From Flavobacteriales bacterium (lineage in GTDB: Bacteria; Bacteroidota; Bacteroidia; Flavobacteriales_G; JALEGO01), in assembly GCA_020628935.1 (NCBI GenBank), contig JAHDEG010000007.1:47878-111877 (forward strand): a stretch of DNA of 64,000 nucleotides. The letters run 5' to 3'. The translations under genes and the position numbers were made by a program. The notes beneath the pieces were generated by a model. It did not search any database. It was given only the letters and a program-made list of their open reading frames with translations, and had not been told where the DNA came from. This document shows positions 3,672-26,781 of this stretch, in pieces. The number at the start of each line of letters is the position of its first letter. Positions within the stretch are counted from its first letter, which is position 1.

Positions 3672-3726
3672 ATAAATTGCAAAAAAAGCAACTTTTTGTG
3701 TCGTTTTAACGATTAAGGGGTAGGTT

Positions 3727-6700
3727 TTGAAATCATCCATCAAAATATTATCCCTTTTTTTATGCTTAGCATTTTCGCTAACAAATTTTTACAATGCTTC
3801 CGCAATCACCAATGCAACGGGAAACTTTCAACAGACTGTAACGCAGTATTCAAATGGATCAACAGATGATCCTATATACATCTATTGTGGCATCGATAGT
3901 AATTCAATGGGGCTCTCAGCTAGTAACGGTGTAGGTAATTTTAATTACCAATGGTCAAAGTACAATCCAGTAACTAACTCTTTTGATGCGTTTTTCACAG
4001 ACAACAATACGCAAACATCCTCCATAAATAATATTTCTTCAGGAGGATATAAAGTAAAAATATCAGATTTAAGTAATAGTGTAATTTCTTGCGAAATAAG
4101 CTGGGTATTTGCTTCTAAAGTAAACCATGAGATTAGTGTAAACAATAACTCTTGCAGCGATTATAATATAAGTTTAAATACCATTATTGAAGATAGCTTT
4201 AAGTACTACTATCCTCCAAAAGAAACATTAATAATAGATTCAAATACTTCAATTAATGTTTGTATAGATGCAGAACACTTTATACCATCAGACTTGGGTT
4301 TTGTTTTATATGGTCCAACCAATTGTGGAAGCCCAGCAGTTACGCTTGCTCCTCACCACAATGCGTTGGCCGGATGTTTAGGAGTAACTTGTCCGCCCCC
4401 AAATTTTCCTGGATCACAAATAACAAACCTTTGCTTTAATTCCGCTTCTACAAACAGCTTTTATATATGTGATGCTGGCTTCAGCAACCCTACTGGTGAA
4501 TACGCATGGTATGACGACACTTATTGTTCTTTGGGTGGAGGAGGATATCCTACAAGTACCTTTTCAGACTTTGAAGGATGCCTTGCTACTGATTCAGGAT
4601 GGGCCATTCAAGTTTTTGACGGCAGAAACGGAACAAGTGGCACACTCAAAAATGTAGATATTACCATATCTAAGCAAAACGGACTCTGTAATCCTATAGT
4701 AATTGAACATAAATCAGGAGCACTAAACCTACCTATAGACGATAATAAATTTACTACCTTAACCGCAACAAAATATACATTACCTGCATACACACAAAAT
4801 ATAACTAATGAACAAGATAGCTTTACTGTAGATTTTATAAACAGTAATCTATCAATTAACTGGACATCAGATAACCCAAACGTTACAATAAATACTCCTA
4901 ATTCAGACACCTTAAAAATCAGCAATCTACCACAAGAAGATACTTGGTTTTACGTCTCATCAACAAATTATTTCAACTGCACCTATGCCGATTCTATATT
5001 TTATCAAAGTCTTAATCAAAAAATTGACAGCATAACAATTATACCGCCTAGCTGTTTTGACAGCGCAACTGGTGAAATATTAATTCACGCCACGTGGGCC
5101 AATCAATTTAGTATTGATAACGGAACCTCTTGGCAATCATCAAACGAATTTAATAACATCACTAAGGGAAATTTTCAAATTATAGCCCTCTCTAGTTCAG
5201 GATGCTCAGATGACTCATTAATTACAGTCGCTGATCCTCCAAAATTAATTATCGATTCTTATGTTACAGCAAACCCATCGTGTAATAACACATGCAATGG
5301 AATGATAGAAATTAACCCAAACGGAGGAACACCTCCTTACACTCACACATGGAATATTAATAATTCGAACATAAACTCTCAAAATAATTTATGTGCCGGA
5401 AATTACCAAATCACCACAAGTGATGTTAACGGATGCATAAAAGACACTAGTTTTATACTAAACGAACCAGAACCTTTAGAAATAGTAACTGAAATAGATA
5501 GCGCTAACTGTAATGGAAATAACGGCAAAATAAGCCTTAATTACATTAGTGGCGGAACTCCTCCCCTGACCTATGTTTGGAATAACGGAAACTCTACGAA
5601 TACACTAAATAATGTCAACACTGGCATATATTCGGTAACGGTAACAGACAATAATTCTTGCGACAGCGTATTTAGTAATCTTGAAGTAATTTCAAAACAA
5701 AACCTAACTGTAAGTATAAATAAAATGGATACTACCCTTTGTTATGGAGCAAATATCAATTTAGAAGCAATCAGTTCAAGCGGAACAGCTCCATACACCT
5801 ATTTATGGAATAATGGTTCAAGCAATAAGACAATAACATCCGATAGTATTTTGGCAAACTGCTATGCAGTAACCGTTACAGATGCAACTGGATGTACAAA
5901 TCAATCAGAACAAACCTGCGTTAACTTATATGAACCAATTACAAACTCTATTGATCAGCTCTCATTAAAAATCTGTGAAGGAGATAGCCTAACTTTTACA
6001 ATTGAAGCAAATGGCGGAAATCCATCAAATCCATTAAATATTAATTGGGAAGGATTTAGCAGTAACAGTTTTTCACCTACAATTTATCCTCAAGGGGCAT
6101 TTCCTGACACCAACTATTATAAAGCAATAGTATCTGATGGAGGATGCAGTACAAACGATACCTCTTATTACGAAGTTAGTTTTTATGGAGCCCCAGAAAT
6201 AGATTTTTCATCAGATGTTACTGAAGGATGCGCGCCATTAAACGTAAATTTCAAACATGAGAATGAACAAAGTATTAATTGTATTTGGAAAATTGATAGC
6301 CTAACAACCCTTACTGGCTGCAGCAGCACCAATTTTACTTTTAACAAGGAAGGAATATTTGACGTAAATTTATTGGTGAATTTTGGAGGAAACTGCCTCA
6401 TTTCTACTACCAAAGAAAATTTCATAACAGTTAAAAAGTCTCCTGAGTTAGAATTTACAATCGAGAATCAAAACTTAACTTTAAACGATGCATCTACCAA
6501 GCTAACTAATCTCACCAACAGAAATAACAACACAAGCTGGAGTATTTATGATTCACAAAATAACATTTTGGTTTTAGAGGAAAGCTCGTACTCACCCACC
6601 GTTGATTTTTCAAGCTTTATTTCAAATCCCTCAAATAATTTTGCACTTGGCACCAACAATTTACTTTATGATGTAGAGCTCAAGGCTACAAACTCATTTG

Positions 6701-7029
6701 GTTGCAGCAATAGCTTAACTAAACAAGTTAGCATAGATGCCAATCATGCTATTTTTATACCAACTGCCTTTACACCAAATGCAGATAATATAAATGAAGA
6801 ATTTTTGCCACACGGTTTTGGTATACTACCAAACGAAGACTATGAATTTAAAATTTTTGATAGGTGGGGAACGCTAGTATTTGAAACCAACCTAAGCACT
6901 GAAGGCTGGAACGGCAAAACTAAAAATAATAAGTCAGCTAAAATGGGAGTGTACGCATGGAGTATACAATATAAAACCATAAAAGGTAAGCTTGTATACA
7001 AATCTGGGTATTTCAACCTACTTCTTTGA
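3727..7029 (+). CDS. Giant secreted adhesin-like protein with SprB repeats, a PKD-like domain and a T9SS type-B (gliding-motility CHU_C-type) C-terminal sorting domain
   Basis: It has a TTG start and the signal peptide MKSSIKILSLFLCLAFSL. Repeated C-x-G-x-NG-x-I...GGTPPYTxxWN units are SprB repeats. The C-terminus is IFIPTAFTPNADNINEEF...FKIFDRWGTLVFE...GWNGK...GVYAW. Confidence 0.85.
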   Translation: MKSSIKILSLFLCLAFSLTNFYNASAITNATGNFQQTVTQYSNGSTDDPIYIYCGIDSNSMGLSASNGVGNFNYQWSKYNPVTNSFDAFFTDNNTQTSSINNISSGGYKVKISDLSNSVISCEISWVFASKVNHEISVNNNSCSDYNISLNTIIEDSFKYYYPPKETLIIDSNTSINVCIDAEHFIPSDLGFVLYGPTNCGSPAVTLAPHHNALAGCLGVTCPPPNFPGSQITNLCFNSASTNSFYICDAGFSNPTGEYAWYDDTYCSLGGGGYPTSTFSDFEGCLATDSGWAIQVFDGRNGTSGTLKNVDITISKQNGLCNPIVIEHKSGALNLPIDDNKFTTLTATKYTLPAYTQNITNEQDSFTVDFINSNLSINWTSDNPNVTINTPNSDTLKISNLPQEDTWFYVSSTNYFNCTYADSIFYQSLNQKIDSITIIPPSCFDSATGEILIHATWANQFSIDNGTSWQSSNEFNNITKGNFQIIALSSSGCSDDSLITVADPPKLIIDSYVTANPSCNNTCNGMIEINPNGGTPPYTHTWNINNSNINSQNNLCAGNYQITTSDVNGCIKDTSFILNEPEPLEIVTEIDSANCNGNNGKISLNYISGGTPPLTYVWNNGNSTNTLNNVNTGIYSVTVTDNNSCDSVFSNLEVISKQNLTVSINKMDTTLCYGANINLEAISSSGTAPYTYLWNNGSSNKTITSDSILANCYAVTVTDATGCTNQSEQTCVNLYEPITNSIDQLSLKICEGDSLTFTIEANGGNPSNPLNINWEGFSSNSFSPTIYPQGAFPDTNYYKAIVSDGGCSTNDTSYYEVSFYGAPEIDFSSDVTEGCAPLNVNFKHENEQSINCIWKIDSLTTLTGCSSTNFTFNKEGIFDVNLLVNFGGNCLISTTKENFITVKKSPELEFTIENQNLTLNDASTKLTNLTNRNNNTSWSIYDSQNNILVLEESSYSPTVDFSSFISNPSNNFALGTNNLLYDVELKATNSFGCSNSLTKQVSIDANHAIFIPTAFTPNADNINEEFLPHGFGILPNEDYEFKIFDRWGTLVFETNLSTEGWNGKTKNNKSAKMGVYAWSIQYKTIKGKLVYKSGYFNLLL

Positions 7030-7690: not shown

Positions 7691-10600
7691 ATGAAAACAA
7701 ATTTTATTTTATTAATATTTGCACTCTTTCAAATTACATACTTGAACGCTCAAACAAGTTTCACTGCAAGCTCAAGCGGGAACTTTGGAGATGGAGCAAC
7801 TTGGGGTAACACTAGTCCAGGTGTTAGAGGTGTTGACTATCCAGGTTCTGGTGACACTGCTATCATACCTGCTGCTACGATTATTACAGTAGCCCAAAAT
7901 GATACATGTTCTGTAATTAGCCAGTTATTTGACGGTTCTTTCACAAGTTCTTTCATAATAAATAGTGGAGATACATTGATTATTGAAAATACTTGGACAA
8001 TGCTCACGACTGAAGATTTCGCAAATGTTGATGTTCAAGTTAACGGATTAGTTAATGTTGGAGGAAGATATTCTACAACTGTCATAAATTCAAGTTGTTT
8101 TGGAGGTATTACAATCGGAAGTTCAGGAGAACTTAATTTAAATTCTGTAGCAGCAAATCAAATTTTGTTAAACGGAACAGATAATTTGTTTACTATTCAA
8201 CAAGATGGAATCCTTAATGTAAGTGCAAATTTATTAATTAGACCTCAAAACGGGTCAGATGTAACGTTTAATGTAAACTCAAAAACTACATTTAATTCTT
8301 CATTAATACTTGCTCAATCGGGTAGCGGATCAACTATAAATGTTAATGTAGATGATACATTACACTTAAAAGATTTGACAATGAGTATTGTTGGAGGTGG
8401 AATAGGCTCAGATATTACATTAGACTTAACTACAGCTGGTGCAACAGTTTTCCTTTCTGGTAACTTTAACGCTCCTTCAGGAGGTACTATCGCTTCTAAT
8501 TTATCAAATTCATCTTCTTTTATATATAACGGCAGTTCACTACAAACCATTCAACTTAGCTCAAGCATTGTTTACCACAACTTAGTTATTGACAATCCTG
8601 TGGGAGCAAGAATTACCAAAATTTTAAAAAAAGCGCGAATATTAAATAATCTAATTATAAAGGATGGTGCGCAGTTTCGTTCAAATGGATTTAATGCCAG
8701 AGTTGGAGCCAATTTAACTTTTGAAGGAACAGGATCATTTGTACCAAATACTAATGACACCCTCAAATTAAACGGAACTGCACAGCAGATAATCGCTGGA
8801 GACCATAATTTCACTGGTGTAGTTTTAGTTTCTAATACATCAGCGAATGGTATAGACTTAGATCCTACATCTAACTTAACATTTAGCAAGCTTATTTTAG
8901 ATGCAAATGGAAATTTTGAAAGCAACGGAGCAAACTTTCAAATAACTGGTGATCTAATTGATAACGGAATCTTTACTATGGATTCTGGAGATACTTTAAC
9001 ATTTAATGGTGGCACCACTCAAACAGTTACTGGTAGAACAATTTTTGATGCAGTTAAGATAAATAATAATAGTACACTTAATCTTCTATCTGGTACAGAT
9101 AGTATTGTTTTTCAAGATATTATAATAGAAAGTAGTTCGGTATTAGATAATGATGATAAAAACTTTTCAGTGAGAGGCAACTGGGTAAACAATGCTGGCC
9201 CCAACGGCTTTACTCCTGAGCAAAACTCAAGAGTGCGTTTTAACGGTACAAATACTCAAAGCATTGAGGGGGCAGACTCAACGTATTTTGAAAATATTGT
9301 TATTAACAATAGCTCAGCATCGTTTCCGTCTGTCAACTTAAATCAAGTCGCAGTTCTTAGAGGTTTACTAGATGTTAATGATGGTCAATTAAATGCTAAT
9401 GGAAACTTAATATTAAATATTAACTCTGCTACAAGTTCAGGCGTATTGGGCAATCTGGGAGACTTTACACCCGAAACACCCTCAATTGTTGGAAATATTC
9501 AATATAAAAGGTCTTTAGAAGAAAACGATAGCGCTCATTGGTATTTAGTTGCATCACCTTTAATCAATCAGGCATTATCAGGTTGGACAGATGATACATA
9601 TTCGACTGGTTTCCCAGGCTCAGATGATCCTGGCTACTTATTCGTATCTATGTCAACTTGGGATGAATCAACTTGTTCTTTTACAACTCCAACCGCAGCT
9701 ACAGACAATTTAAATAACGGTTCAGATGAGTCTGGTTGGTTCGTTTATGCAAACACAGGTGAGGTATTAGACTTGGAAGGTGAAATCAAAGAAGGTACTG
9801 TTAGCATATCTGGTTTAACTTCATCAGCAACTGGATGTCCAGACGGAGATGGATGGCATCTAATAGGTAACCCTTACGCATCTCATGTTTTTTGGGATAA
9901 CGTCACGATGACAAATATTGCAGGTGCTTCGGGAGGCTCAGGATACGTTTTAAAAGAAGATGCTAGCGGAGATTACGTAGAATATGACCATAACACTGCT
10001 TCAGATATATTATCTGCAGGTGAAGGTATATGGGTTCAAGTAGCACCCGGACTACTTGGAACAGTAGAGTTTAATGAAGATGACAAAACATTAAGCACAC
10101 AAGATAACTTTAACTCTGTTCGTTTAACTTCAGATGTTGAAGAAGCTCTCTTGAACATTCACATGTTGGCAGATGGAACAAGAGAAGATAATGCAATAGT
10201 TGCTTTGAGAAGAGGTGTTAGTGTTGGTTATGAGTGGTTTAATGAAACTCAAAAAATAGCAAACGACAATAACTTTTTAAACATTGCTACAGAAGCTGAT
10301 TCTATTAAGTGCTTGTTCAACTCTATTCCAGATGAGGTTGATAGTATTAGAATTCCTATTAAATTTTACAGAAAGTTTAGCTCAGCAGGAAGTACCCATA
10401 CGTATGAACTCACCTTTAATAATGTAGAGGAGTTTTTATCCTACAACAAAGTATTGGTACTTGAGGATTCAGTTATGAATACATTTACAGAACTCACAAC
10501 TAACGGACAGCAAGTAACATTAATTGGCGATGATAACGGTGAAAGGAGATTCTTCTTAAACGTATACTCCCCTCTAGAATTCTCTAGCATCAACCCAACT

Positions 10601-12025
10601 TGCTTTAACACTTTAGATGGTTCAGCAATTGTTGAAGGAAGCGGTAATGGCCCATTTGATTATACTTGGATGGATAGTAATAACAACATTATTAGAAATG
10701 TAACTGGAGTACAAGGTGCCGATACCATAAACGGAATTGGCCAAGGAATATATAACGTTATTGTAAGTGGGAATTCTGATTTCGGAACTGTAACCAGCTT
10801 AGTAGAGCTCGTATCACCATTATCACCTGATGATATTGAAATTGATGTTGTTGCACCAACGTGTTTCAACGGAAATGATGGGGCTGCTTCAATTACATTC
10901 CCAGACACCGTAAATACAAACACATGGGAATGGTCATTTGGAGGCAACGATTCATTAGCTCAAAATCTTTCCTCAGGAAATTATACTGTTAGCATAAACA
11001 ATCCTAACGGCTGTATGGCAACAAAACAAGTCATTGTTCCGAACGGTCCGGAAATAATAATTAGCTCCACTACAACAGGTGTAAATTGCTACGGAGACGA
11101 AACCGGAGCCATATCTATAGCAACTCCAACTAGTAGTTATTATAGCATTGAGTGGTCTAATGGTAGTACTCAAGAATTTGTTTCGTCATTAACAGTTGGT
11201 ACATACACAGTAACTGTAACAGACTTAATTGATGGCTGTGAACAAATTGAATCTTATGAAATAATTGAACCAGACTCTATATCTACCAACGCAACCGTTA
11301 CTAATGTAAGCTGTAACGATGCACAAGATGGTTCAATTGTGGTAGATATTACTGGAGGAACTCCTCCTTACGAACTTGAATGGAATTTTGCTACACAATC
11401 AAATAGCAATCAATTAGATTCACTAAGTGGCGGTGTTTATATTGTAGAAATTGAAGATGCTCAAGAATGTATAACAAGTATGGCTGTTCAAGTTAATGAA
11501 CCCCAAGAAGTAAATGCCTTCTTTGAAATATTAAGTGACACTGTTCTCGTTAACGAAAATGTACTATTTGATAATTCTTCAATTGGAGCAAGTACATATG
11601 CGTGGGAATTTGGAGACGGTAATTCTAGTACACTACCAAACCCTACAAATGCCTATGCATCAGCAGGAGACTACGAGGTGATTTTAATTTCTAGTATTGA
11701 TGGTAACTGTGCCGACACTGCCTATGGTAACGTGAACGTTCAACTATTAACTAGCATAAACCCTAATTTTGATAATACTAACCCTATTCAAATAATTCAA
11801 AATACAAACAATCAAATTTTGTTAAATACGTATTTCGATAGACCTAGTTTTATTAAAATAGAAACGTATAACTCGGCTGGACAACTAGTTACACCAACCA
11901 TTTCCAGCACAGTACTGAATATTAGTTTAGAATTAGAAACCCCACAAACTAAGGGTATGTACTCTGTAATAGTCTTTGACAATAATGAAAAAATTCTTAC
12001 AACAAAGAAAATTATAATTAACTAG
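7691..12025 (+). CDS. Giant secreted protein (1444 aa) with SprB repeats, a PKD domain and a T9SS type-A (Por_Secre_tail) C-terminal sorting domain
   Basis: Signal peptide …YLNAQ. SprB repeats include CFNTLDGSA..GSGNGPFDYTW and CNDAQDGSIVVDITGGTPPYELEW. PKD motif YAWEFGDGNSSTLPNPTNAYASAGDYEV. C-terminal tail IKIETYNSAGQLV...KGMYSVIVFDNNEKILTTKKIIIN. Confidence 0.85.
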   Translation: MKTNFILLIFALFQITYLNAQTSFTASSSGNFGDGATWGNTSPGVRGVDYPGSGDTAIIPAATIITVAQNDTCSVISQLFDGSFTSSFIINSGDTLIIENTWTMLTTEDFANVDVQVNGLVNVGGRYSTTVINSSCFGGITIGSSGELNLNSVAANQILLNGTDNLFTIQQDGILNVSANLLIRPQNGSDVTFNVNSKTTFNSSLILAQSGSGSTINVNVDDTLHLKDLTMSIVGGGIGSDITLDLTTAGATVFLSGNFNAPSGGTIASNLSNSSSFIYNGSSLQTIQLSSSIVYHNLVIDNPVGARITKILKKARILNNLIIKDGAQFRSNGFNARVGANLTFEGTGSFVPNTNDTLKLNGTAQQIIAGDHNFTGVVLVSNTSANGIDLDPTSNLTFSKLILDANGNFESNGANFQITGDLIDNGIFTMDSGDTLTFNGGTTQTVTGRTIFDAVKINNNSTLNLLSGTDSIVFQDIIIESSSVLDNDDKNFSVRGNWVNNAGPNGFTPEQNSRVRFNGTNTQSIEGADSTYFENIVINNSSASFPSVNLNQVAVLRGLLDVNDGQLNANGNLILNINSATSSGVLGNLGDFTPETPSIVGNIQYKRSLEENDSAHWYLVASPLINQALSGWTDDTYSTGFPGSDDPGYLFVSMSTWDESTCSFTTPTAATDNLNNGSDESGWFVYANTGEVLDLEGEIKEGTVSISGLTSSATGCPDGDGWHLIGNPYASHVFWDNVTMTNIAGASGGSGYVLKEDASGDYVEYDHNTASDILSAGEGIWVQVAPGLLGTVEFNEDDKTLSTQDNFNSVRLTSDVEEALLNIHMLADGTREDNAIVALRRGVSVGYEWFNETQKIANDNNFLNIATEADSIKCLFNSIPDEVDSIRIPIKFYRKFSSAGSTHTYELTFNNVEEFLSYNKVLVLEDSVMNTFTELTTNGQQVTLIGDDNGERRFFLNVYSPLEFSSINPTCFNTLDGSAIVEGSGNGPFDYTWMDSNNNIIRNVTGVQGADTINGIGQGIYNVIVSGNSDFGTVTSLVELVSPLSPDDIEIDVVAPTCFNGNDGAASITFPDTVNTNTWEWSFGGNDSLAQNLSSGNYTVSINNPNGCMATKQVIVPNGPEIIISSTTTGVNCYGDETGAISIATPTSSYYSIEWSNGSTQEFVSSLTVGTYTVTVTDLIDGCEQIESYEIIEPDSISTNATVTNVSCNDAQDGSIVVDITGGTPPYELEWNFATQSNSNQLDSLSGGVYIVEIEDAQECITSMAVQVNEPQEVNAFFEILSDTVLVNENVLFDNSSIGASTYAWEFGDGNSSTLPNPTNAYASAGDYEVILISSIDGNCADTAYGNVNVQLLTSINPNFDNTNPIQIIQNTNNQILLNTYFDRPSFIKIETYNSAGQLVTPTISSTVLNISLELETPQTKGMYSVIVFDNNEKILTTKKIIIN

Positions 12026-12049
12026 AATACTATTCTAAGTAACTTTAAA

Positions 12050-12080
12050 GCCAGTAAATCAATGATTTACTGGCTTTTTT
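12050..12080 (+). terminator. Rho-independent terminator after the 1444-aa gene
   Basis: A perfect 11-bp stem (gccagtaaatc / gatttactggc) with a 3-nt loop is followed by TTTTTT. Confidence 0.8.
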
Positions 12081-12165
12081 ACGTTTAAAAAAAATATATA
12101 ATCAGTTATGTGTAGAATATTAACTTTATGTATGAACAACACTATATTGTTTGAATAATATTTGC

Positions 12166-12173
12166 TAAATTTG
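12166..12173 (+). promoter_or_regulatory. Candidate -7 box (TAaaTTTG) for the XrtF operon
   Basis: TAAATTTG matches TAnnTTTG. It ends 13 nt upstream of the ATG at 12187 and lies just downstream of the preceding terminator. Confidence 0.4.
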
Positions 12174-12186
12174 TGGCGTAATACAA

Positions 12187-12414
12187 ATGGTAAAAAAATA
12201 CTTCTACATAATTTTATTCTCAATTTGTGCGTTAACATTTAATTCGCATAAATTGTATGCTCCACCAGCTCCGCCAGCAGGTGGTGCTACTCCACCTTGC
12301 TGGCCTCCACCCTGTATTCCTATTGATGGGGCAACTGTATTGTTGGTTGCAGCAGGAATGTTAATTGGTGGAAGAGAAATAATGAAACTTAACCATAAGT
12401 CTTCTAAGGCATAA
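12187..12414 (+). CDS. Small secreted precursor with a PEP-CTERM-like (P-I-D type) C-terminal sorting tail; putative XrtF substrate
   Basis: The 75-aa product has three parts. First is the signal peptide MVKKYFYIILFSICALTFNSHKLYA. Next is the Pro-rich core PPAPPAGGATPPCWPPPCI. Last is P-I-D, the hydrophobic helix GATVLLVAAGMLIGG and the basic tail REIMKLNHKSSKA. The stop lies 3 nt before the exosortase ATG. Confidence 0.6.
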   Translation: MVKKYFYIILFSICALTFNSHKLYAPPAPPAGGATPPCWPPPCIPIDGATVLLVAAGMLIGGREIMKLNHKSSKA

Positions 12415-12417
12415 TAA

Positions 12418-12951
12418 ATGCAACTTTCTTTCTTTAAGAATCCGGCTGTAAGGTTTGTATTCAACTGTTTCGCACTTTATGTGCTTTGGTACGGTTTATA
12501 TGAAATTTGGTTACATCCTACAAGAATTTTAGATCGTCCGGTTGTTAATAGCATCGTATTTTTAAGCGAAAAATTTCTTAGTAGCATTGGTTATCAAATG
12601 GTAGACTTCGGAAGAATTGATTCTAGCATTAGCGCTATAGGAATAGATACTACTCACGGAGTGCAAATTGGAGACCCATGTAACGGAATTGCTATTTTTG
12701 CGCTCTTTGCTGGCTTTATAATCGCCTTTCCTGGAAAATGGGTAAGAAAACTATATTATATACCATTTGGTATTTCAATAATTTACACCGCTAACTTAAT
12801 AAGAATAATTGTTTTGTGCTTAATCGCTTATTACGCCCCAGAACAACTTGAATTTAATCATAATTACACGTTTACCACATTGGTTTACTCTGTAGTAATA
12901 CTACTATGGTATTACTGGATTAAAAAATTATCTAGTTTTAATAACACATGA
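12418..12951 (+). CDS. xrtF: Exosortase family protein, XrtF-like
   Basis: The 177-aa polytopic membrane protein has the exosortase signature residues in the expected order: DPCNGI (Cys), ANLIRI (Arg) and EFNHN (His). Its size and context match the Bacteroidota XrtF type. Confidence 0.7.
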   Translation: MQLSFFKNPAVRFVFNCFALYVLWYGLYEIWLHPTRILDRPVVNSIVFLSEKFLSSIGYQMVDFGRIDSSISAIGIDTTHGVQIGDPCNGIAIFALFAGFIIAFPGKWVRKLYYIPFGISIIYTANLIRIIVLCLIAYYAPEQLEFNHNYTFTTLVYSVVILLWYYWIKKLSSFNNT

Positions 12952-13484
12952 AAACAATTCACAAACTCGTTGTTTTTCTCTGTGGGGTACTATTAGTAAC
13001 ATTAGGTTTTTTTAGAGATTTCTTTTTTAAGACACTTAATGTACGCTTAAGCTACTTGTGGTACAAAGATGAAATATACTACCAAAAAGCAGGAGAACAG
13101 CTTTTTGGTAGTATGGATTACTATACCCTATATTACAGTAAATTTGGCTTCACAATAGTATGCAGTCTCATATATATGCTACTCACTATTATTATTACTT
13201 ACGTAATATTCAAAAAAACAAAGTTCATTAAATATATTTTATTGGCATATATCTTTATAATAGTAGCGTCTGCAATAATTTTTTTGAGCGGATATATTGT
13301 TGAATTGTTTTATGACCCAAGTGAACTAAAATATTTAAAGCAAATTACTAAATCTCCTTTACAAAGGCTGTACCTTCTTTCGCGATATATTATGGGGTTT
13401 GTACAATCCCCTATTTTGTCGGCAATATTAATTTTATCACTTTTTCTTTATAAGACTCCAGGCATGAAAGATCTTCCTTCTTAA
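12948..13484 (+). CDS. Exosortase F system-associated membrane protein (putative)
   Basis: The start overlaps the xrtF stop (ATGA). The 178-aa product has about 4 TM segments and is positioned as the invariant XrtF partner gene. The C-terminal region RYIMGFVQSPILSAILILSLFLY resembles that family. Confidence 0.55.
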   Translation: MKTIHKLVVFLCGVLLVTLGFFRDFFFKTLNVRLSYLWYKDEIYYQKAGEQLFGSMDYYTLYYSKFGFTIVCSLIYMLLTIIITYVIFKKTKFIKYILLAYIFIIVASAIIFLSGYIVELFYDPSELKYLKQITKSPLQRLYLLSRYIMGFVQSPILSAILILSLFLYKTPGMKDLPS

Positions 13485-14289
13485 AAAAAGCGAAGTATGT
13501 TGCAACAACGAAAATTGCAAAATCAGGTATCCCTACAACAATTAAGATAAACAAGTGAAAAAGAATACCTGCAAAAAGAAGTGGTTTCTTCAGCTGCTTA
13601 ACCCAAACTAAAATGGGGAACAACAATTGGTAAGCTAGAGCAAAGTATGTTCCAATAACAGTTATAACCTTAGAACTTAGTAAAAACGAAGCAAAAAAAG
13701 GAGTTGAATAAGTAGGATCAAGCAAAATAGCTTCTAATGCATTTCCAGAACCCCAATACTCACCAGAAAGCTTAAACCATCCAGAAAATAAATACATAAA
13801 AACAACCTGAAAGCGAATAGCCCAAAACATAAAGTTACTTATGAGTAGTGAGTATTCACTATTATTTTTTTTTATCGTTAAAAATATATTGAAAAATAAA
13901 ACCAGTAACATCAAAAAGCTTCCTCCAGTTGTAGCAGCATTAATTTTATTAAACAGAATAAATGTTAAAATATAAATCAATAAGGCAATAGACCTTGAGT
14001 ATTTGCTAGTAAAAACTCCTAATACTAATAGTGTTAAATAAAGTACTAAGTATAAAATTGTTTGAAAATCGGATGTAAAAAGTAATAAATTTAAAGCCTT
14101 AGAAACATAACTGGTAGGCATCACTCCTTGATAAGCATATGAATGATCAGATAATAAAATACCAAAAGAAGGAAGTATAAATAACAAATTAATTACTAGT
14201 GATATATATAATGCCTTCCTTAAAGCATTAATTTCCCACACATACCTATTTATGGAAACAAATCTTAAAACCTTATCAACTAAATACAT
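13411..14289 (-). CDS. HTTM-domain / SdpB-like polytopic membrane protein
   Basis: The 292-aa multi-TM protein carries RFQVVFMYLFSGWFKLSGEYWGSGNALEAIL, an HTTM-like motif (Q..Y..G..K.....W..G.A). It is paired with an SdpA/DUF5819-like gene that overlaps it by 10 bp. Confidence 0.5.
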   Translation of the reverse strand: MYLVDKVLRFVSINRYVWEINALRKALYISLVINLLFILPSFGILLSDHSYAYQGVMPTSYVSKALNLLLFTSDFQTILYLVLYLTLLVLGVFTSKYSRSIALLIYILTFILFNKINAATTGGSFLMLLVLFFNIFLTIKKNNSEYSLLISNFMFWAIRFQVVFMYLFSGWFKLSGEYWGSGNALEAILLDPTYSTPFFASFLLSSKVITVIGTYFALAYQLLFPILVWVKQLKKPLLFAGILFHLFILIVVGIPDFAIFVVATYFAFFKKEDLSCLESYKEKVIKLILPTK

Positions 14290-14897
14290 TTTTTTAGTGG
14301 CTTTAAGACAAAGTCATTTTCATAAACTTTTTTTTCAGGTAAATATTGCATTTGAGAAAATGTATTTAGCTGACAAGCTGGGTAGAGTTTTAACATACAT
14401 ATTTTAGATGTATCAACTATATTACCGTCATTTAACTTTTTAAGAGAATAGGAAACAGCCATCTTATAAGTATTAGAGGCTGAAACTATAGAATCAGCAT
14501 AACTTTTAGCGTATCCTAATGCATTATAACTCCTGTACATATTATCTAAATTTCTACTAAACTGAAGATGGATACGGTACTCAAAACCTGCTGATGATAA
14601 TCTATTCATATGATGGGTTCTAAGTAAATGAGATCCCAAATCAACATAAATAAATGAATCGCTATCTAAGAGTTTATATCCGCATAAAAACTGCTCTTGG
14701 CACAAAGGAGGTTCAGGAGCAAATAATCGCCAATCTTGGTGAAAGAATGGTCGCATATACCGTCCAACAATTCTATTTAAAAAATCTGGAGTGTAAATAC
14801 CTTGTGTGCAATAAATTACTGAAAAACTGAAGTGCATTATTATAAACGAACTAACAACAATTAAGAGCAGAATTAACTTATTTCGATTTTTTTTCAA
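14280..14897 (-). CDS. DUF5819 / SdpA-like protein (N-terminal membrane anchor)
   Basis: The 205-aa product has one N-terminal TM segment and the motif FFHQDWRLFAPEPP, typical of partners of SdpB/HTTM proteins. It is translationally coupled to the downstream HTTM gene. Confidence 0.45.
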   Translation of the reverse strand: MKKNRNKLILLLIVVSSFIIMHFSFSVIYCTQGIYTPDFLNRIVGRYMRPFFHQDWRLFAPEPPLCQEQFLCGYKLLDSDSFIYVDLGSHLLRTHHMNRLSSAGFEYRIHLQFSRNLDNMYRSYNALGYAKSYADSIVSASNTYKMAVSYSLKKLNDGNIVDTSKICMLKLYPACQLNTFSQMQYLPEKKVYENDFVLKPLKKCI

Positions 14898-14971: not shown

Positions 14972-16375
14972 ATGAAAATTACATATCCGATAATTTTATT
15001 TGCTGTTAACCTAGTAATAATGAGCCTAGAGCTAGTTGGAATTCGTATTCTAGCTCCGTTTTTCGGCACTTCATCTATTGTGTGGACAAGCATGATATCT
15101 ACCATATTTTGCAGCCTTACATTTGGTTATTTTTTGGGAGGATATATTTCAGAAAAATTTGAAAAAAATCAACAAAAAGCTCTACAAGCTACACTATTTT
15201 TTAGTTCAATTAGCTTGGCTATTATTGCTATTACCAAAGACCACCTTCTCTATTTTTCATCTAGCTTAACTGAAAATAATGAACTAAATGCTATAATAGC
15301 ATCAAGCAGTTTATTTTTAATACCCTCTACCCTACTATCAATAGCGCCAGTAATTATTGGCAAAATAATGCTAACAAAAACCAAAAAAAACGGCAGTAAA
15401 TTAAGTCAGATTTTCGCCATTTCTTCTTTAGGAGGAGTTGCGGGCTTGTGGTTAACAACCTTTATTTTCATACCGCACATTGGCAGTAATAAAATTCTGT
15501 TTTTTCTTTCCTCCATCGTAATTATAAGCTTCACTATACTCATATCTAAATACTCATTTAAAGGTTTGTCAATATTATTTGGTATTTACATGCTTACTGT
15601 TTCATTTAAAAAAGCAGAACATAATTACATAGACAAGGATAGTTTATACAATCGCATTCTAGTTTATGAAGATAATTTTGAAGGAAAAAAACTTAAAATA
15701 ATGCAATTAAACAATCGCATTAACGCAGCTATTGATGTAGCAAATCCTTATAAACCATATTACGGTTACAACATTAAAATATTAGACTTGGTAAAAAACA
15801 AAGAACAAAAACAAAATATATTAATATTAGGAGGAGCTGCACTAACTTTAAGCAATAGTATAGCTCAATTAACTGATGTTAATACTATTGATGTTTTAGA
15901 AATTGACAAACAATTAACTCACTTAGCCAATACACACTTTTTTAAGACAAACAATAAAATAAATGTGATAAATACAGAAGCAAGAAGCTATCTCAACAAA
16001 GTTGATACATCAAAAAAGTATGATGTAATTATTTGGGATGTTTTCACTAGCGAAAACAATATTCCTGATCACTTAACAACCAAACAGACAGCTAAAATAT
16101 TGAACAGAATTACAAATTCAGATGGAGACTTATACATGAACATACTTTCTCCATTAGATTATGAAAAAGGAGGCTTTTTATACTCTGAAATTAAAACCTT
16201 TAGATCAATTTTTACAAATAATGACATACACCCAGTTTCAAGCATAACTGATTCTAACATCACACAAAACATTATACTGCAGTTTAACAATAAGGCAAAC
16301 ACTCCTTTAAGAAAAAAAATTACTCAAAGAGGAATAATTATTACAGATGATTATTGTCCATTTTCTTATAAGTAA
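14972..16375 (+). CDS. Fused membrane (MFS-like)/spermidine-synthase-like protein
   Basis: The N-terminal motif SLELVGIRILAPFFGTSSIVWTSMISTIFCSLTFGYFLGGY is characteristic of this fusion family. The N-terminus has about 7 TM segments. The C-terminus has a Rossmann-like region (ILILGGAALTL ... DVIIWDVF). Confidence 0.6.
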   Translation: MKITYPIILFAVNLVIMSLELVGIRILAPFFGTSSIVWTSMISTIFCSLTFGYFLGGYISEKFEKNQQKALQATLFFSSISLAIIAITKDHLLYFSSSLTENNELNAIIASSSLFLIPSTLLSIAPVIIGKIMLTKTKKNGSKLSQIFAISSLGGVAGLWLTTFIFIPHIGSNKILFFLSSIVIISFTILISKYSFKGLSILFGIYMLTVSFKKAEHNYIDKDSLYNRILVYEDNFEGKKLKIMQLNNRINAAIDVANPYKPYYGYNIKILDLVKNKEQKQNILILGGAALTLSNSIAQLTDVNTIDVLEIDKQLTHLANTHFFKTNNKINVINTEARSYLNKVDTSKKYDVIIWDVFTSENNIPDHLTTKQTAKILNRITNSDGDLYMNILSPLDYEKGGFLYSEIKTFRSIFTNNDIHPVSSITDSNITQNIILQFNNKANTPLRKKITQRGIIITDDYCPFSYK

Positions 16376-22671: not shown

Positions 22672-25600
22672 TCACCTAATTACGGTCACGTGCCCCGCTT
22701 TATTATGTCGCTCCCCTAAAATATCTTTATAAGTTAACTTCCATGAGTAAACACCCTGTGCAACTATCTCTTGCTTCCCTTGTTGCTCGTAATTTCCTTC
22801 CCAAGCTTTATTATAATTAACAGATCTAAAAATTAGTTCCCCCCAACGGTTATAAATGATAAAATCATATTCCGATTCATCCAAACCAAATATTATAGGG
22901 TAAAATGTTTCATTTTTCACATCAGAGTTAGGTGTAAATGCATTAGGCATATAAAAGTACACTATTGGCTCAATAACTACAGGGCTAATCGTTTCAGCCA
23001 TACAGCCTTCTTCAGTTGTCACCACTAATTTAACGGGATAGGTACCGGTGTCCTCAAGGGAAATTCTTAAATCATTATTATCACTGAAATAATTAATATA
23101 ATCAATTAAAGGATTTTGATCATTAGACATATCTAAAGTATCTATACCATTTTCGTCATAAAAAACCCAATCCCATGCAACTACATTAAATTGTGAAAGA
23201 TCTTGAAATAAAAATTTCATATTTAGTAAATCTGCAGTTTCTGGTGTAGTTGTAAACAAAGCTTGAGGAAAATCTACAACAGTAATTATACCCGTAGTTT
23301 GTGATAAGCAGCCCTCAATAGATATTGAATTTAGGGTTACATTATAATCTCCTGGCTGATCAAATACATATGAAGATGGTTGTGGATTACATTCTGATGA
23401 GAAAAACTGGTCGTAAAAATTCCAATAACAAGAGATAAAACTTGAGGTTGATGTATTAACAAATTCAACTGAATCATCAGGACATATTATGGTGTCGGAA
23501 GGAGTGAAAGATGGATTTATTTGTTCGTAAAAAGTTATCAAAACTGAGTCTGATACTGGTTGAGAGCAATCATCAGAAGCCACTACTGAGATAACAACTT
23601 CATCGGGATACTCACCAACTGGTTGAGTTGTGTAATTTGATGATGGAGTAAATCCATTTCCCCAGTCATATGTTTTTATTACGTTGGGATTACCGCCAAA
23701 AGCTTTTGCTTTGAGTATAATTTCATCTCCTACACATATTGTTTGATCTTGGAATGCTTCAACCCCCAAAGTAGGATATACATTCACACATGCCTGAGCT
23801 GGTAAAAAATCACATCCGTTTTCATCAATTACATCAACAGTATAACAGACAAATGAATCTGTTACCGCAACAATTGGACCAGGACCAGTTACTCCTGTAG
23901 ACCAAGTAAATGAGTAAGGGGGAATTCCTCCTGTTGCAGATGCAGAAAGAGAATATAAGCTATTGGTACAAACTGTAGTATCTACAAAACTTGTAGATAC
24001 AATACCTATTGATGGCCTTGGCACCAGTATAGAACCTTCTACCGGACAAACTCCGTTACTTAAAACTGTAACAGTATAAACATCTGAACTTAAATTTAAT
24101 TCAGTATTATTTGTTCCACCAGTACTCCAAATGTATGTGAAATTACCCGGAAAAGGACCACCAGATGCGGTAACAGTGGCAGATCCATCACTTGAATTGT
24201 AACAGTTGGTACTGTCAAAAGTCAATGATAACAATGGTTCAGAAATATTATGTACTTCTATACTTGCGATACTATCACAATTGTTATCATCTTCAATTGT
24301 AACTGTGTATACAGCTGGCATTAAATTTAATGCTGAATCGCTAATTTGTCCAGACGACCAAGTAAATCTGTAAGGAGGATTAGCACCTGTTACATTCACT
24401 ACTGCTGCAGACCCCGTATTGGTTTCACAATATGCACTATCACTAATTAAATCAAATGTAAATGGGGCGGGGTCGGTTAATATAAAGCTTGTATCAAGTT
24501 GGCAGTTTTTACTATCTGATATGGTTACCAAAAAAGTATCGGCACATAAACTAGAAACTATTGAAGATGTGCTGCCTTGGGACCAAATATAGCTATAAGG
24601 TGGGGTCCCGCCATTCACGCTTAATGCTAGACCTCCATCACATGAACTATTACACTGAATAGGGCTAGTTGTTAAATCAAAGCTTATGCTATCAGGCTCA
24701 CTTATTGTAATACTTGAATCAATTACACAAAATAATGAATCCTCCCATACCCCATACAAATTATAGGTGTTTACTGATAAGTTATTTACTACAGTAGAGT
24801 ATATTAATGTACTGTCTACTATTGGGTAAACGAAAAGCATACTATCAATTGAATTCGGTGAAAAGAACTCTACAGAACCATCTACATCACCTGGGCAACT
24901 TGTTTGTGTTGTAATTATACTATCTATATCTATCCCCCTAACTGTAACTGTGGAATAAGCCGTATCTCCGCATTCACCAGCGATTCCATAACCAATTTGA
25001 TGAACCCCGATACCAGCTAGAGAAGGAGAAAAAAATCCATTTGCAATACCTGGTCCAAACCAAGATCCTCCTGGGTACGATGCTACGAGTTCAACTGGAT
25101 CGTCAGTATTACAGAAAAGCTCTTGTATATTAATAAATAAATTTGGAACAAATGCTCCTGGCAATATATTGAATGTATCGTAAGCCACACAGCCCCCCTG
25201 ATCTGTTACTGTAACAGTATAATTACCATCAGGTAAATTTGTTGCTGTAGCCGTTGTTTGTACTGGATTTGTATTCCAAGAATAGTTGTAAGCGGGGCTA
25301 CCACCAGCTACTACTACTCCTGCCTCACCGTCATTAAATCCTTCACAAGATTCATCAACAAAAGTAGGAGTAAGTTCCATTTCTGGGCACCGTATGAGAA
25401 TTTCATCAACTCCTATACACCCTAATTGATCTGTTACGCTTACTTTAAAATCTCCGCATGGCAAATCTGTTACTGAAGTTGTTTCTCCGTTACTCCAAGC
25501 AAAAGTATAAGGTGGAGATCCACCTGTAATTACTGGAGCAGAATTATAAATAATATTACATGGGGCATTTAATACATCTGGTCCTAAATCAATTTGTAAA

Positions 25601-26781
25601 CCATCAACAGTTATACAGAATGACTGAGAAAAAGTGCCTGAATATGGGCAATTATCATCTATTAAATTTATTGTAAAGCAATAGGGTGTTGTACTAATGT
25701 CATCGCTAGTTGGTGTCCAGTTCAATGTTCCAATAGGATTTGTTGGATCTGAATTATCAATGGTAAACGTAGAACCTGGAATCTCGTTAACTATTTCCAT
25801 TGTAACATTTTGTCCTCCGTTTGGATCAAATGCTGCTATTTTAAGATCTAATGGGATACCTGGACAAACAATAGTGTCGTTAGATGCTGTCGAAGTTGTA
25901 TCTGAATCAAACCCTGATGCAAACGGATTGTTATTAGTACATGGAACCGTGTAAATTTGAATATCACGCATTACGGAACCTATTAAAACTCCATCTCTAT
26001 ACTCTTTAGCTTCTACCGCTATTACAGTAATTAATTGATTTAAAGAATTAAAGCAAAAAGAACCATTTTCTACATCAAATGTAAATGGAAAACTAGGATC
26101 GGCAGTTAAAGGATTATTTACTGAAAAACCAGGCTCATAGTTTACTAATGTATTTCCTGCCCCCATTGGTGTAATTAACTCAAAAGCAATTGAGTCTGCA
26201 TCAGGATTAATAACACCGTGATCGAAACAATAATCAGATTGTACACACACAAATGGAACTGGATTATTAGTAAAGGTTACTGAAGAATTACAAATTCCAC
26301 CAACATTATTAATTAAAGAACGAAGATGTAAACGCGTATTACCCGGGTTCGAGATTGTCGTAATAGCATTGTTTCTGCAACAGAACACCCAATCTATTGT
26401 CCAGTCAGGACATTCCTGAGGGAGTGTCACGTTTACAGAGTAAGTATACTTTTGAATTCCAGAAAACGAACCATTATTACAGGTACTTTGTACCGATGAG
26501 CAAACTGGAGAGACTTCTTCGGGCGGACCACTTTGAGTCATTTCTAATAGAATAGAATTATTCCCTGTAAATCCACAACTTGGTGAAGTTATTACTAATT
26601 CTGGTTCAGTAGGCGCATTGCTTCCATCGCAATCTCTGTAAAAAACAAGATTGATAACGTAATTATTTCCTCCAAGACATTCATATGTTAGATCTGCACC
26701 GGCTGCATGTGATGCAAATGATACATTTGACAAACACACCGTAAAGAAAAGTAAAACACAAGACAGTAAATTTTTACCCAT
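22672..26781 (-). CDS. Giant adhesin-like protein (1369 aa) with SprB repeats, PKD-like domains and a T9SS type-B C-terminal sorting domain
   Basis: The signal peptide is followed by the ASHAAGADLTYECLGGNNYVINLVFYRDCDG N-domain. There are multiple ...GGxPPYxxxWS SprB repeats. The C-terminus is FYMPNAFTPNSDVKNETFYPI...FIIYNRWGELIF...AWEGNY...GVYSW. Confidence 0.85.
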   Translation of the reverse strand: MGKNLLSCVLLFFTVCLSNVSFASHAAGADLTYECLGGNNYVINLVFYRDCDGSNAPTEPELVITSPSCGFTGNNSILLEMTQSGPPEEVSPVCSSVQSTCNNGSFSGIQKYTYSVNVTLPQECPDWTIDWVFCCRNNAITTISNPGNTRLHLRSLINNVGGICNSSVTFTNNPVPFVCVQSDYCFDHGVINPDADSIAFELITPMGAGNTLVNYEPGFSVNNPLTADPSFPFTFDVENGSFCFNSLNQLITVIAVEAKEYRDGVLIGSVMRDIQIYTVPCTNNNPFASGFDSDTTSTASNDTIVCPGIPLDLKIAAFDPNGGQNVTMEIVNEIPGSTFTIDNSDPTNPIGTLNWTPTSDDISTTPYCFTINLIDDNCPYSGTFSQSFCITVDGLQIDLGPDVLNAPCNIIYNSAPVITGGSPPYTFAWSNGETTSVTDLPCGDFKVSVTDQLGCIGVDEILIRCPEMELTPTFVDESCEGFNDGEAGVVVAGGSPAYNYSWNTNPVQTTATATNLPDGNYTVTVTDQGGCVAYDTFNILPGAFVPNLFINIQELFCNTDDPVELVASYPGGSWFGPGIANGFFSPSLAGIGVHQIGYGIAGECGDTAYSTVTVRGIDIDSIITTQTSCPGDVDGSVEFFSPNSIDSMLFVYPIVDSTLIYSTVVNNLSVNTYNLYGVWEDSLFCVIDSSITISEPDSISFDLTTSPIQCNSSCDGGLALSVNGGTPPYSYIWSQGSTSSIVSSLCADTFLVTISDSKNCQLDTSFILTDPAPFTFDLISDSAYCETNTGSAAVVNVTGANPPYRFTWSSGQISDSALNLMPAVYTVTIEDDNNCDSIASIEVHNISEPLLSLTFDSTNCYNSSDGSATVTASGGPFPGNFTYIWSTGGTNNTELNLSSDVYTVTVLSNGVCPVEGSILVPRPSIGIVSTSFVDTTVCTNSLYSLSASATGGIPPYSFTWSTGVTGPGPIVAVTDSFVCYTVDVIDENGCDFLPAQACVNVYPTLGVEAFQDQTICVGDEIILKAKAFGGNPNVIKTYDWGNGFTPSSNYTTQPVGEYPDEVVISVVASDDCSQPVSDSVLITFYEQINPSFTPSDTIICPDDSVEFVNTSTSSFISCYWNFYDQFFSSECNPQPSSYVFDQPGDYNVTLNSISIEGCLSQTTGIITVVDFPQALFTTTPETADLLNMKFLFQDLSQFNVVAWDWVFYDENGIDTLDMSNDQNPLIDYINYFSDNNDLRISLEDTGTYPVKLVVTTEEGCMAETISPVVIEPIVYFYMPNAFTPNSDVKNETFYPIIFGLDESEYDFIIYNRWGELIFRSVNYNKAWEGNYEQQGKQEIVAQGVYSWKLTYKDILGERHNKAGHVTVIR

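Follow-up and report, generated by a model that had tools for sequence, protein, structure and literature searches.

A probable one-enzyme/one-substrate PID-CTERM/exosortase X protein-sorting cassette in a Flavobacteriales bacterium

Introduction

In a preprint, Haft (10.1101/2023.06.07.544157) has reviewed the logic of dedicated protein-sorting systems, the Cys/Arg/His triad that exosortases have in common with archaeosortases, and the lipid attachment that depends on archaeosortase A (ArtA). Here we report on a cassette of three genes from a Flavobacteriales bacterium that probably constitutes such a dedicated system, with a single enzyme of the exosortase X (XrtX) type and a single substrate of the PID-CTERM type. 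The cassette lies at positions 12187 to 13484 of a stretch of 64,000 nucleotides (nt) of contig JAHDEG010000007.1 (assembly GCA_020628935.1, positions 47,878 to 111,877), hereafter referred to as the window; all coordinates given below are those of the window.

The PID-CTERM/XrtX system is curated already, both in NCBIfam (NF046080, NF046081 and NF046082) and in Pfam (PF28310, 'PID_CTERM'), and the locus is a new divergent copy of it. The curated PID-CTERM class that a first-pass annotation of this DNA, made from the sequence alone, had mentioned does therefore exist. The window has in common with this system the order of the genes (small PID-tail protein, XrtX, membrane partner), an exosortase that scores above the XrtX cutoff, a substrate of ~74 amino acids (aa), and the signature CxPPPC-(I/V)-P-I-D-G, after which come a helix and a basic tail. 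On the other hand, its substrate carries PIDGA instead of PIDGG and GGRE instead of GGKK, deviations that are shared by the nearest relative of the cassette (locus L087); its partner protein contains a 17-aa insertion, and the upstream gene, which encodes a putative cargo protein of type IX secretion (T9SS), is set off by a 161-nt spacer with a terminator.

The XrtF system (TIGR04128 and TIGR04127; Fjoh_1448 and Fjoh_1449) also combines a small Bacteroidota exosortase of ~175 aa with an adjacent small polytopic partner, but it represents another subfamily: the partner in the window fails the TIGR04127 model, and no cognate substrate has been described for XrtF. Deletion of xrtF or Fjoh_1449 in Flavobacterium johnsoniae resulted in the loss of surface colonisation and biofilm formation, as did deletions of porU, porV, porZ or sprA (PMC10936215), and this match between XrtF and T9SS mutant phenotypes parallels the T9SS-cargo neighbourhood of the XrtX cassette.

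More distant likenesses are found in three other systems. The PEP-CTERM/exosortase A (EpsH, XrtA) system resembles the cassette in the tripartite signal with a motif abutting the helix, in the enzyme superfamily and in the Cys/Arg/His triad, and several XrtX relatives border polysaccharide genes (Wzz/BY-kinase, Wzx, glycosyltransferases). However, XrtA has at least eight helices, recognises P-E-P and serves many substrates with real passenger domains, whereas the window encodes one passenger-free substrate with P-I-D and a minimal enzyme of about five helices, with no exopolysaccharide genes in the 64 kb. Archaeosortase A of Haloferax volcanii, which acts on PGF-CTERM proteins, is a homologous enzyme and the model for the re-anchoring proposed below; it differs in being archaeal, in its large S-layer glycoprotein substrates, and in its motif and lipid chemistry. 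Among the members of the family, it alone has been shown to couple cleavage to the attachment of a lipid (10.1101/2023.06.07.544157). Finally, MYXO-CTERM and JDVT-CTERM proteins have invariant Cys residues at the signature motif, often two that are close but non-adjacent, and JDVT-CTERM is a dedicated one-target system co-operonic with its enzyme (10.1101/2023.06.07.544157). Their enzymes, however, are CPBP/Rce1-type proteases (myxosortases) and not exosortases, and the motif Cys is thought to be lipidated, while the Cys pair of the window lies just N-terminal to P-I-D, outside the motif.

The exosortase and its membrane partner

Gene 2 (12418..12951, forward strand) encodes a protein of 177 aa that was assigned by means of the NCBIfam models and their curated cutoffs. 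The top exosortase model was that of exosortase X (NF046081), with 183.2 bits against a cutoff of 170 and coverage of model positions 2-165 of 168; the XrtF model (TIGR04128) ranked second, 85 bits lower (98.5 bits, cutoff 90). The general exosortase/archaeosortase signature TIGR04178 gave 64 bits (cutoff 23), and the EpsH/XrtA model TIGR02602 gave 16.6 bits against a cutoff of 105.55, which leaves the protein outside the PEP-CTERM/XrtA family. XrtX was likewise the best-scoring model for all 23 database homologues of gene 2. The catalytic motifs on which the first-pass annotation had recognised an exosortase are all present, namely GDPCNGI (Cys88, 12679-12681), NLIRI (Arg129, 12802-12804) and FNHNY (His148, 12859-12861), and the three residues are invariant in an alignment with the 23 homologues. 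These data indicate that gene 2 encodes an exosortase with an intact triad, as had been claimed, and that it belongs to the XrtX family rather than to the XrtF type that had been proposed.

In a one-genome-per-species scan, 531 loci encoding relatives of gene 2 were identified, and 80 of them were fetched and compared. Most of these 80 loci showed the same arrangement, with an adjacent PID-tail gene and an adjacent partner gene. The nearest relative of the cassette was L087, whose XrtX is 73% identical to that of the window.

The AlphaFold2 (AF2) model of the gene 2 product (predicted local distance difference test score, pLDDT, 87) consists of five long helices plus a beta-hairpin. Comparison of this model with the PDB, for which there is no solved exosortase fold, gave no significant neighbour. 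From the distribution of Lys and Arg residues on the model (K107, R110, K111, K169, K170), the 104-114 loop and the C-terminus would be cytoplasmic, and Cys88 and His148 would then be situated at helix ends on the periplasmic side.

Gene 3 (12948..13484, forward strand) encodes a 178-aa membrane protein of about four helices, identified through a sub-cutoff match to the XrtX-associated model NF046082 and through synteny. A tblastn search with gene 3 revealed a homologue downstream of the exosortase gene in 46 loci (best E-value 9e-15), and NF046082 was matched by all 27 aligned syntenic homologues. Conserved positions include G20, N31, K65, Y142, R146, S154 and P155, and the 17-aa insertion (aa ~120-140) is common only to the window and its nearest relative. 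Judged by these alignments, the gene 3 product is homologous to the XrtX-associated membrane proteins but divergent, and it is not a model-defined member of that family. Its AF2 model, built on a two-sequence alignment, was mediocre (pLDDT 69) and was not interpreted.

The first-pass annotation had taken gene 3 for the XrtF-associated partner, and under that reading the cassette would be an XrtF system whose small open reading frame (ORF) is the long-missing XrtF substrate. Besides the XrtF score of gene 2, which passes the cutoff of that model, such an identity is in line with the JGI labels of several gene 2 homologues (XrtF, which corresponds to an older nomenclature) and with faint TIGR04127 matches (E ~0.005) in 3 of the 27 partner homologues, the latter indicating that XrtX and XrtF are probably sister systems. 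Nevertheless, gene 3 itself gave no match to TIGR04127 at E<=1, NF046082 being its sole match; the lead of XrtX over XrtF recurs throughout the homologues of gene 2, and a separate curated trio (NF046080, NF046081 and NF046082) describes exactly the arrangement of the window. Altogether, an XrtF identity of the cassette is very improbable.

A minimal putative substrate with a conserved sorting tail

Gene 1 (12187..12414, forward strand) encodes a 75-aa mini-protein of the PID-CTERM type, recognised by a sub-cutoff match to NF046080 and by its syntenic homologues. The tripartite sorting architecture that had been claimed for it was borne out by re-examination. A signal-peptide-like segment (M1-A25, 12187-12261), judged by inspection of the sequence, is followed by a Pro/Gly/Cys core of 19 aa (P26-I44, 12262-12318), PPAPPAGGATPPCWPPPCI, which includes Cys38 and Cys43; then come the motif P45-I46-D47 (12319-12327), a hydrophobic and putatively transmembrane segment (G48-G62, 12328-12372) and a basic tail (R63-A75, 12373-12411). 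A lipoprotein-type signal was considered for gene 1 and rejected, given that no lipobox Cys is conserved across the homologues.

The small ORF is conserved beside the exosortase gene in relatives, in agreement with the expectation of the first-pass annotation. With gene 1 as the query, tblastn identified a syntenic small ORF in 30 loci (E-values down to 2e-11), and a hidden Markov model built on the tails found one PID-tail ORF, and no more than one, in each of 63 of the 80 loci, where in nearly all cases it immediately precedes the exosortase gene; several of the 17 loci without a small ORF lack upstream sequence. Every one of the 31 small ORFs that were aligned matched NF046080. Among the homologues Cys38 and Pro45 do not vary, Cys43 and Asp47 hardly do, and an NCBI assembly has a gene called for the small ORF. 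The ratio of nonsynonymous to synonymous substitution rates (dN/dS) was ~0.08 with respect to the closest relative, a value obtained with dS near saturation. The small ORF is thus under purifying selection.

These observations bear on the simplest alternative, that gene 1 is a chance ORF, or a mere leader or regulatory peptide for xrtX. The ORF is indeed short and of low complexity, and it falls under the curated cutoffs; the conservation at the protein level described above, the low dN/dS value and the thousands of homologues in databases refute this alternative, whose residual probability is negligible. In addition, the small gene has kept its place beside the cargo gene in a genome in which 14 kb separate it from xrtX.

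Neither the gene 1 protein nor that of the nearest relative has a PF28310 match on record. The small ORF of L087 ends in the same 'PIDGA' tail and has no Pfam match on record, which indicates that the window belongs to a subclade that escapes curated thresholds. From its sequence, gene 1 is best regarded as a divergent PID-CTERM homologue and not as a model-defined member. For annotation, this means that the PIDGA-tail subclade falls under the curated thresholds of both the PID-CTERM and the partner-protein models.

The first-pass annotation had described gene 1 as a substrate made of little else than sorting signals and a 20-mer. The description is correct, but it is not peculiar to this locus. 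Small ORFs in the related loci had a median length of 74 aa, and none of them contained a passenger domain. Two apparently long PID proteins (L025, 149 aa, and L068, 334 aa) were discarded as artefacts of upstream in-frame ATG codons, their signal peptides beginning at internal Met residues. The core between the likely signal-peptidase site and P-I-D had a median of 21 aa (range 11-34) and contained 62% Gly+Pro, with a variable low-complexity Gly/Pro sequence in its N-terminal two-thirds. Exactly two Cys residues were present in the core of 60 of the 61 complete copies; their spacing was of four residues in 40 copies, and the second Cys stood one residue ahead of the PID proline in 46. When 5.8 billion proteins were searched with a profile, more than 4300 clusters at 90% identity were obtained, the best 120 of which are 68-103 aa long; nearly all carry PF28310, and for one cluster the NCBI name is 'PID-CTERM protein-sorting domain-containing protein'. 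In a library at 50% identity, the best 150 representatives were all of 53-130 aa, with the match always at the C-terminus. Minimal substrates of this kind are therefore standard throughout the known family.

Two variants of the mini-protein were observed among the relatives. Nine loci (L017, L030, L033, L043, L051, L067, L072, L074 and L080, with small ORFs at ~3700-3980) encode a subfamily with a (GM)n-rich core, CGGPFPPCP(I/V)PLD(S/N) in place of CWPPPC(I/V)PIDGG, and a conserved '...KKNPA' C-terminus; these mini-proteins are paired with cargo homologues of ~800 aa. The outlier L068 (186-1187; exosortase gene at 1224-1850) has a target ending in '...TTIPLDGG', a helix and RRRREEEE, with a core of ~70 aa that contains at least eight Cys and no Gly/Pro tract, and its adjoining exosortase is longer (208 aa). 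This locus may represent a different subfamily; exosortase Y is also among the NCBIfam models.

Gene layout and the putative T9SS cargo gene upstream

The three genes are co-directional and tightly coupled, exactly as the first-pass annotation had claimed, with a gap of 3 nt between genes 1 and 2 (12415-12417) and an ATGA overlap between genes 2 and 3 (12948-12951). That annotation had also placed the cassette between a strong terminator and its own TAnnTTTG box. Both elements are present, but the second does not hold as evidence of a promoter. An intrinsic-terminator-like hairpin (12047..12083, forward strand), with a 14-bp stem and a 3-nt loop (12047-12077) and a T-run, lies in the 161-nt spacer (12026-12186) between the upstream cargo gene and gene 1; the folding z-score of this spacer was -3.4, and Rfam gave sub-threshold matches only, which fell on the hairpin. 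The octamer TAAATTTG (12166..12173, forward strand), read from the sequence as a candidate Bacteroidota -7 promoter box, is located 13 nt upstream of the ATG of gene 1. Within the 64 kb of the window, TAnnTTTG occurs 88 times against 109 expected, i.e. with no enrichment, so the box alone is no evidence of a promoter. A sigma-70 promoter scan gave matches at chance level.

Upstream of the cassette lies a gene (7691..12025, forward strand) for a putative T9SS type A cargo protein of 1444 aa. Its Pfam domains are SprB, PKD_4 and the C-terminal sorting domain Por_Secre_tail (PF18962), the last with 27.1 bits against a cutoff of 27; against TIGR04183, the T9SS type A sorting domain, it gave 20.9 bits (cutoff 23). 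A homologue of the central region of this cargo (aa 371-1100) was found directly upstream of the small ORF and on the same strand in 36 of 63 loci, and TIGR04183 was present in 37 of 40 upstream neighbours, which are typically of ~1000 aa. The intergenic distance between cargo gene and small ORF in relatives is often of -4 to +60 nt, and the four genes are contiguous in L084 and L085. The unit usually extends upstream to the T9SS cargo gene, a feature beyond the account of the first-pass annotation. In close relatives of the window (L001, L002, L032 and L087), the gap between cargo and peptide genes is of 9-31 nt and there is no spacer. Since, among these loci, the 161-nt terminator spacer is present only in the window, the cassette of the window appears to be transcriptionally uncoupled from the cargo gene.

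The cargo-peptide pair is also found without an adjacent xrtX (L081, L082 and L086); in L082 and L086 the pair is kept with no exosortase gene within 6-8 kb. A Vicingaceae chromosome carries xrtX and its partner gene (L066) without an adjacent small ORF, and the small gene is ~14 kb away on the same chromosome, directly downstream of a gene for a 994-aa cargo homologue.

Proposed mechanism and function

From the identity of the enzyme, the architecture of the substrate and the synteny of the three genes, we consider it likely that the cassette is a dedicated one-enzyme/one-substrate PID-CTERM/exosortase X protein-sorting system. We infer that the gene 1 product would be exported by Sec and that its C-terminal helix would retain it in the inner membrane, the basic tail lying on the cytoplasmic side and P-I-D at the outer face of that membrane. 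XrtX, as a polytopic membrane cysteine protease, would cut at or just after P-I-D by means of Cys88, Arg129 and His148, all three predicted to lie at or close to helix ends on the periplasmic side. The acyl-enzyme would then most likely pass the new C-terminus on to an acceptor in the envelope, a lipid or a glycan, simple release being the less likely outcome. The product would be a Pro/Gly-rich peptide of ~19-21 residues, the sole conserved feature of which is Cys-x4-Cys right before the predicted cut. Gene 3 would encode the obligate membrane partner of XrtX; that it presents the substrate or the acceptor is a guess. It is probable that the peptide acts jointly with the large putative T9SS type A cargo protein, whose gene lies immediately upstream in most relatives.

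Several observations count against this proposal. The gene 1 product gave 20.0 bits (E 4e-4) with the PID-CTERM model NF046080, whose cutoff is 26, and the gene 3 product gave 25.3 bits with NF046082, whose cutoff is 75. The acceptor of bacterial exosortases is not known (10.1101/2023.06.07.544157), full-text searches of the literature turned up no paper on the PID-CTERM/XrtX system, and no experimental evidence for any XrtX system was found. The single-substrate character relies on a scan for PID-type tails in which none was found in the 64-kb window besides gene 1, and the scan covers 64 kb of the genome, so further PID-tail proteins may be encoded elsewhere. With regard to the cargo, ~40% of the related loci have no adjacent cargo gene, and in the window a strong terminator stands between the cargo gene and the cassette. 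Finally, the likely signal-peptidase site of gene 1 reads LYA|PP. A Pro in the +1 position is poorly suited to signal peptidase I, and the N-terminal helix may for this reason stay on in the subclade of the window.

An uncleaved signal anchor would be expected if the gene 1 product were an unprocessed two-helix membrane hairpin, acting as a structural subunit of an XrtX/partner complex or of a cargo complex. The Pro at +1, which is shared by 13 of the 61 homologues, would fit this explanation, as would the absence of a passenger domain and the persistence of the cargo-peptide pair without an adjacent xrtX. However, about two-thirds of the homologues have ordinary sites (A|Q, of the Bacteroidota type, in 22 and A|G in 18), the tail is of the standard tripartite kind with the motif abutting the helix, and the neighbouring enzyme keeps an intact protease triad, so that we regard a hairpin as quite unlikely.

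As for the fate of the peptide after cleavage by XrtX, we favour transfer of its new C-terminus to an envelope lipid or glycan over simple release, at about an even chance, by analogy with ArtA, the sole studied homologue, which couples removal of the tail to lipid attachment. In this respect, the lipid- or glycan-attached surface peptide suggested by the first-pass annotation is a reasonable possibility by analogy. Hydrolytic release would instead yield a soluble periplasmic or extracellular peptide, which might be a toxin, act in signalling, or bind metals or thiols. The tiny mature part with its conserved Cys pair is compatible with such a role, and it is not settled whether exosortases and archaeosortases are one-step transpeptidases (10.1101/2023.06.07.544157). 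On the contrary, the loci contain no recurrent exporter, immunity or receptor gene, the variable N-terminal two-thirds of the core look like a spacer rather than a ligand, and the characterised relative is the lipid-attaching ArtA; release is accordingly the less probable of the two outcomes, with something like a one-in-five standing in our estimation.

With its surrounding prolines, the Cys-x4-Cys pair is reminiscent of the CPPC hinge of immunoglobulin G, a resemblance that suggests inter-chain disulfides through the Cys pair. As a speculative and rather improbable possibility, the mini-peptide might be an envelope anchor or adaptor for the neighbouring T9SS type A cargo, with a short polyPro/Gly stalk, a cross-linkable Cys-x4-Cys hinge and its C-terminus on a lipid or glycan. 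Three observations led us to this idea: the cargo-peptide pair persists in genomes that have xrtX at another site, junctions between the genes often overlap, and F. johnsoniae xrtF mutants phenocopy T9SS mutants. If the anchor/adaptor idea were true, exosortase X, and by extension XrtF, would belong to type IX secretion and attachment as one of its branches.

The identity of the family is ordinary for a curator, and the pairing with the cargo is a testable lead. Together with the polysaccharide loci of some genomes, this pairing leads to a concrete hypothesis on why the loss of the sister XrtF system affects biofilm formation and colonisation. Moreover, a single substrate with a mature part of ~20 residues is near the simplest possible test case for exosortase chemistry, and the C-terminal adduct of such a peptide would be directly readable by mass spectrometry.

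Genomic neighbourhood of the cassette

Polysaccharide or exopolysaccharide genes, which would be expected under the exosortase paradigm, were absent from the 64-kb window. In relatives, the module is flanked in L084 (1-2708, 7957-10120) and L085 (449-2818, 7412-9582) by genes for Wzz/BY-kinase, Wzx flippase and WbqC, and it lies among glycosyltransferase genes in L081 (1-2836) and L082 (1-4799, 8932-16231); sulfotransferase and pyruvyl transferase genes are also among the polysaccharide genes in or beside which the module lies in these relatives. Just downstream of the module, L084 and L085 encode a 525-aa fusion of DUF5684 with Peptidase_S26, of the signal-peptidase-I family, and this fusion is absent from the window.

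Two more large SprB-repeat proteins, with CHU_C (type B) T9SS sorting domains, are encoded in the window at 3727-7029 (forward strand) and 22672-26781 (reverse strand), so that, including the cargo gene at 7691-12025, three big putative T9SS cargo genes are located within 27 kb.

Downstream of the cassette, two genes on the reverse strand converge on it, one for an HTTM/SdpB-like membrane protein (13411-14289) and one for a DUF5819 protein (14280-14897). The HTTM gene overlaps gene 3 tail to tail by 74 nt. Such 3'-3' overlaps, of 8-101 nt, occur in eight related loci (L001, L002, L006, L012, L013, L021, L024 and L046), and an HTTM gene is found downstream of the exosortase gene in 19 of the 80 loci, being convergent in 18 of these 19. 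Adjoining the HTTM/DUF5819 pair, a gene on the forward strand (14972-16375) encodes a fused major facilitator superfamily (MFS)/spermidine-synthase protein (NF037959, 181 bits), a neighbour that recurs in L001, L005 and L032, which are the most closely related loci.

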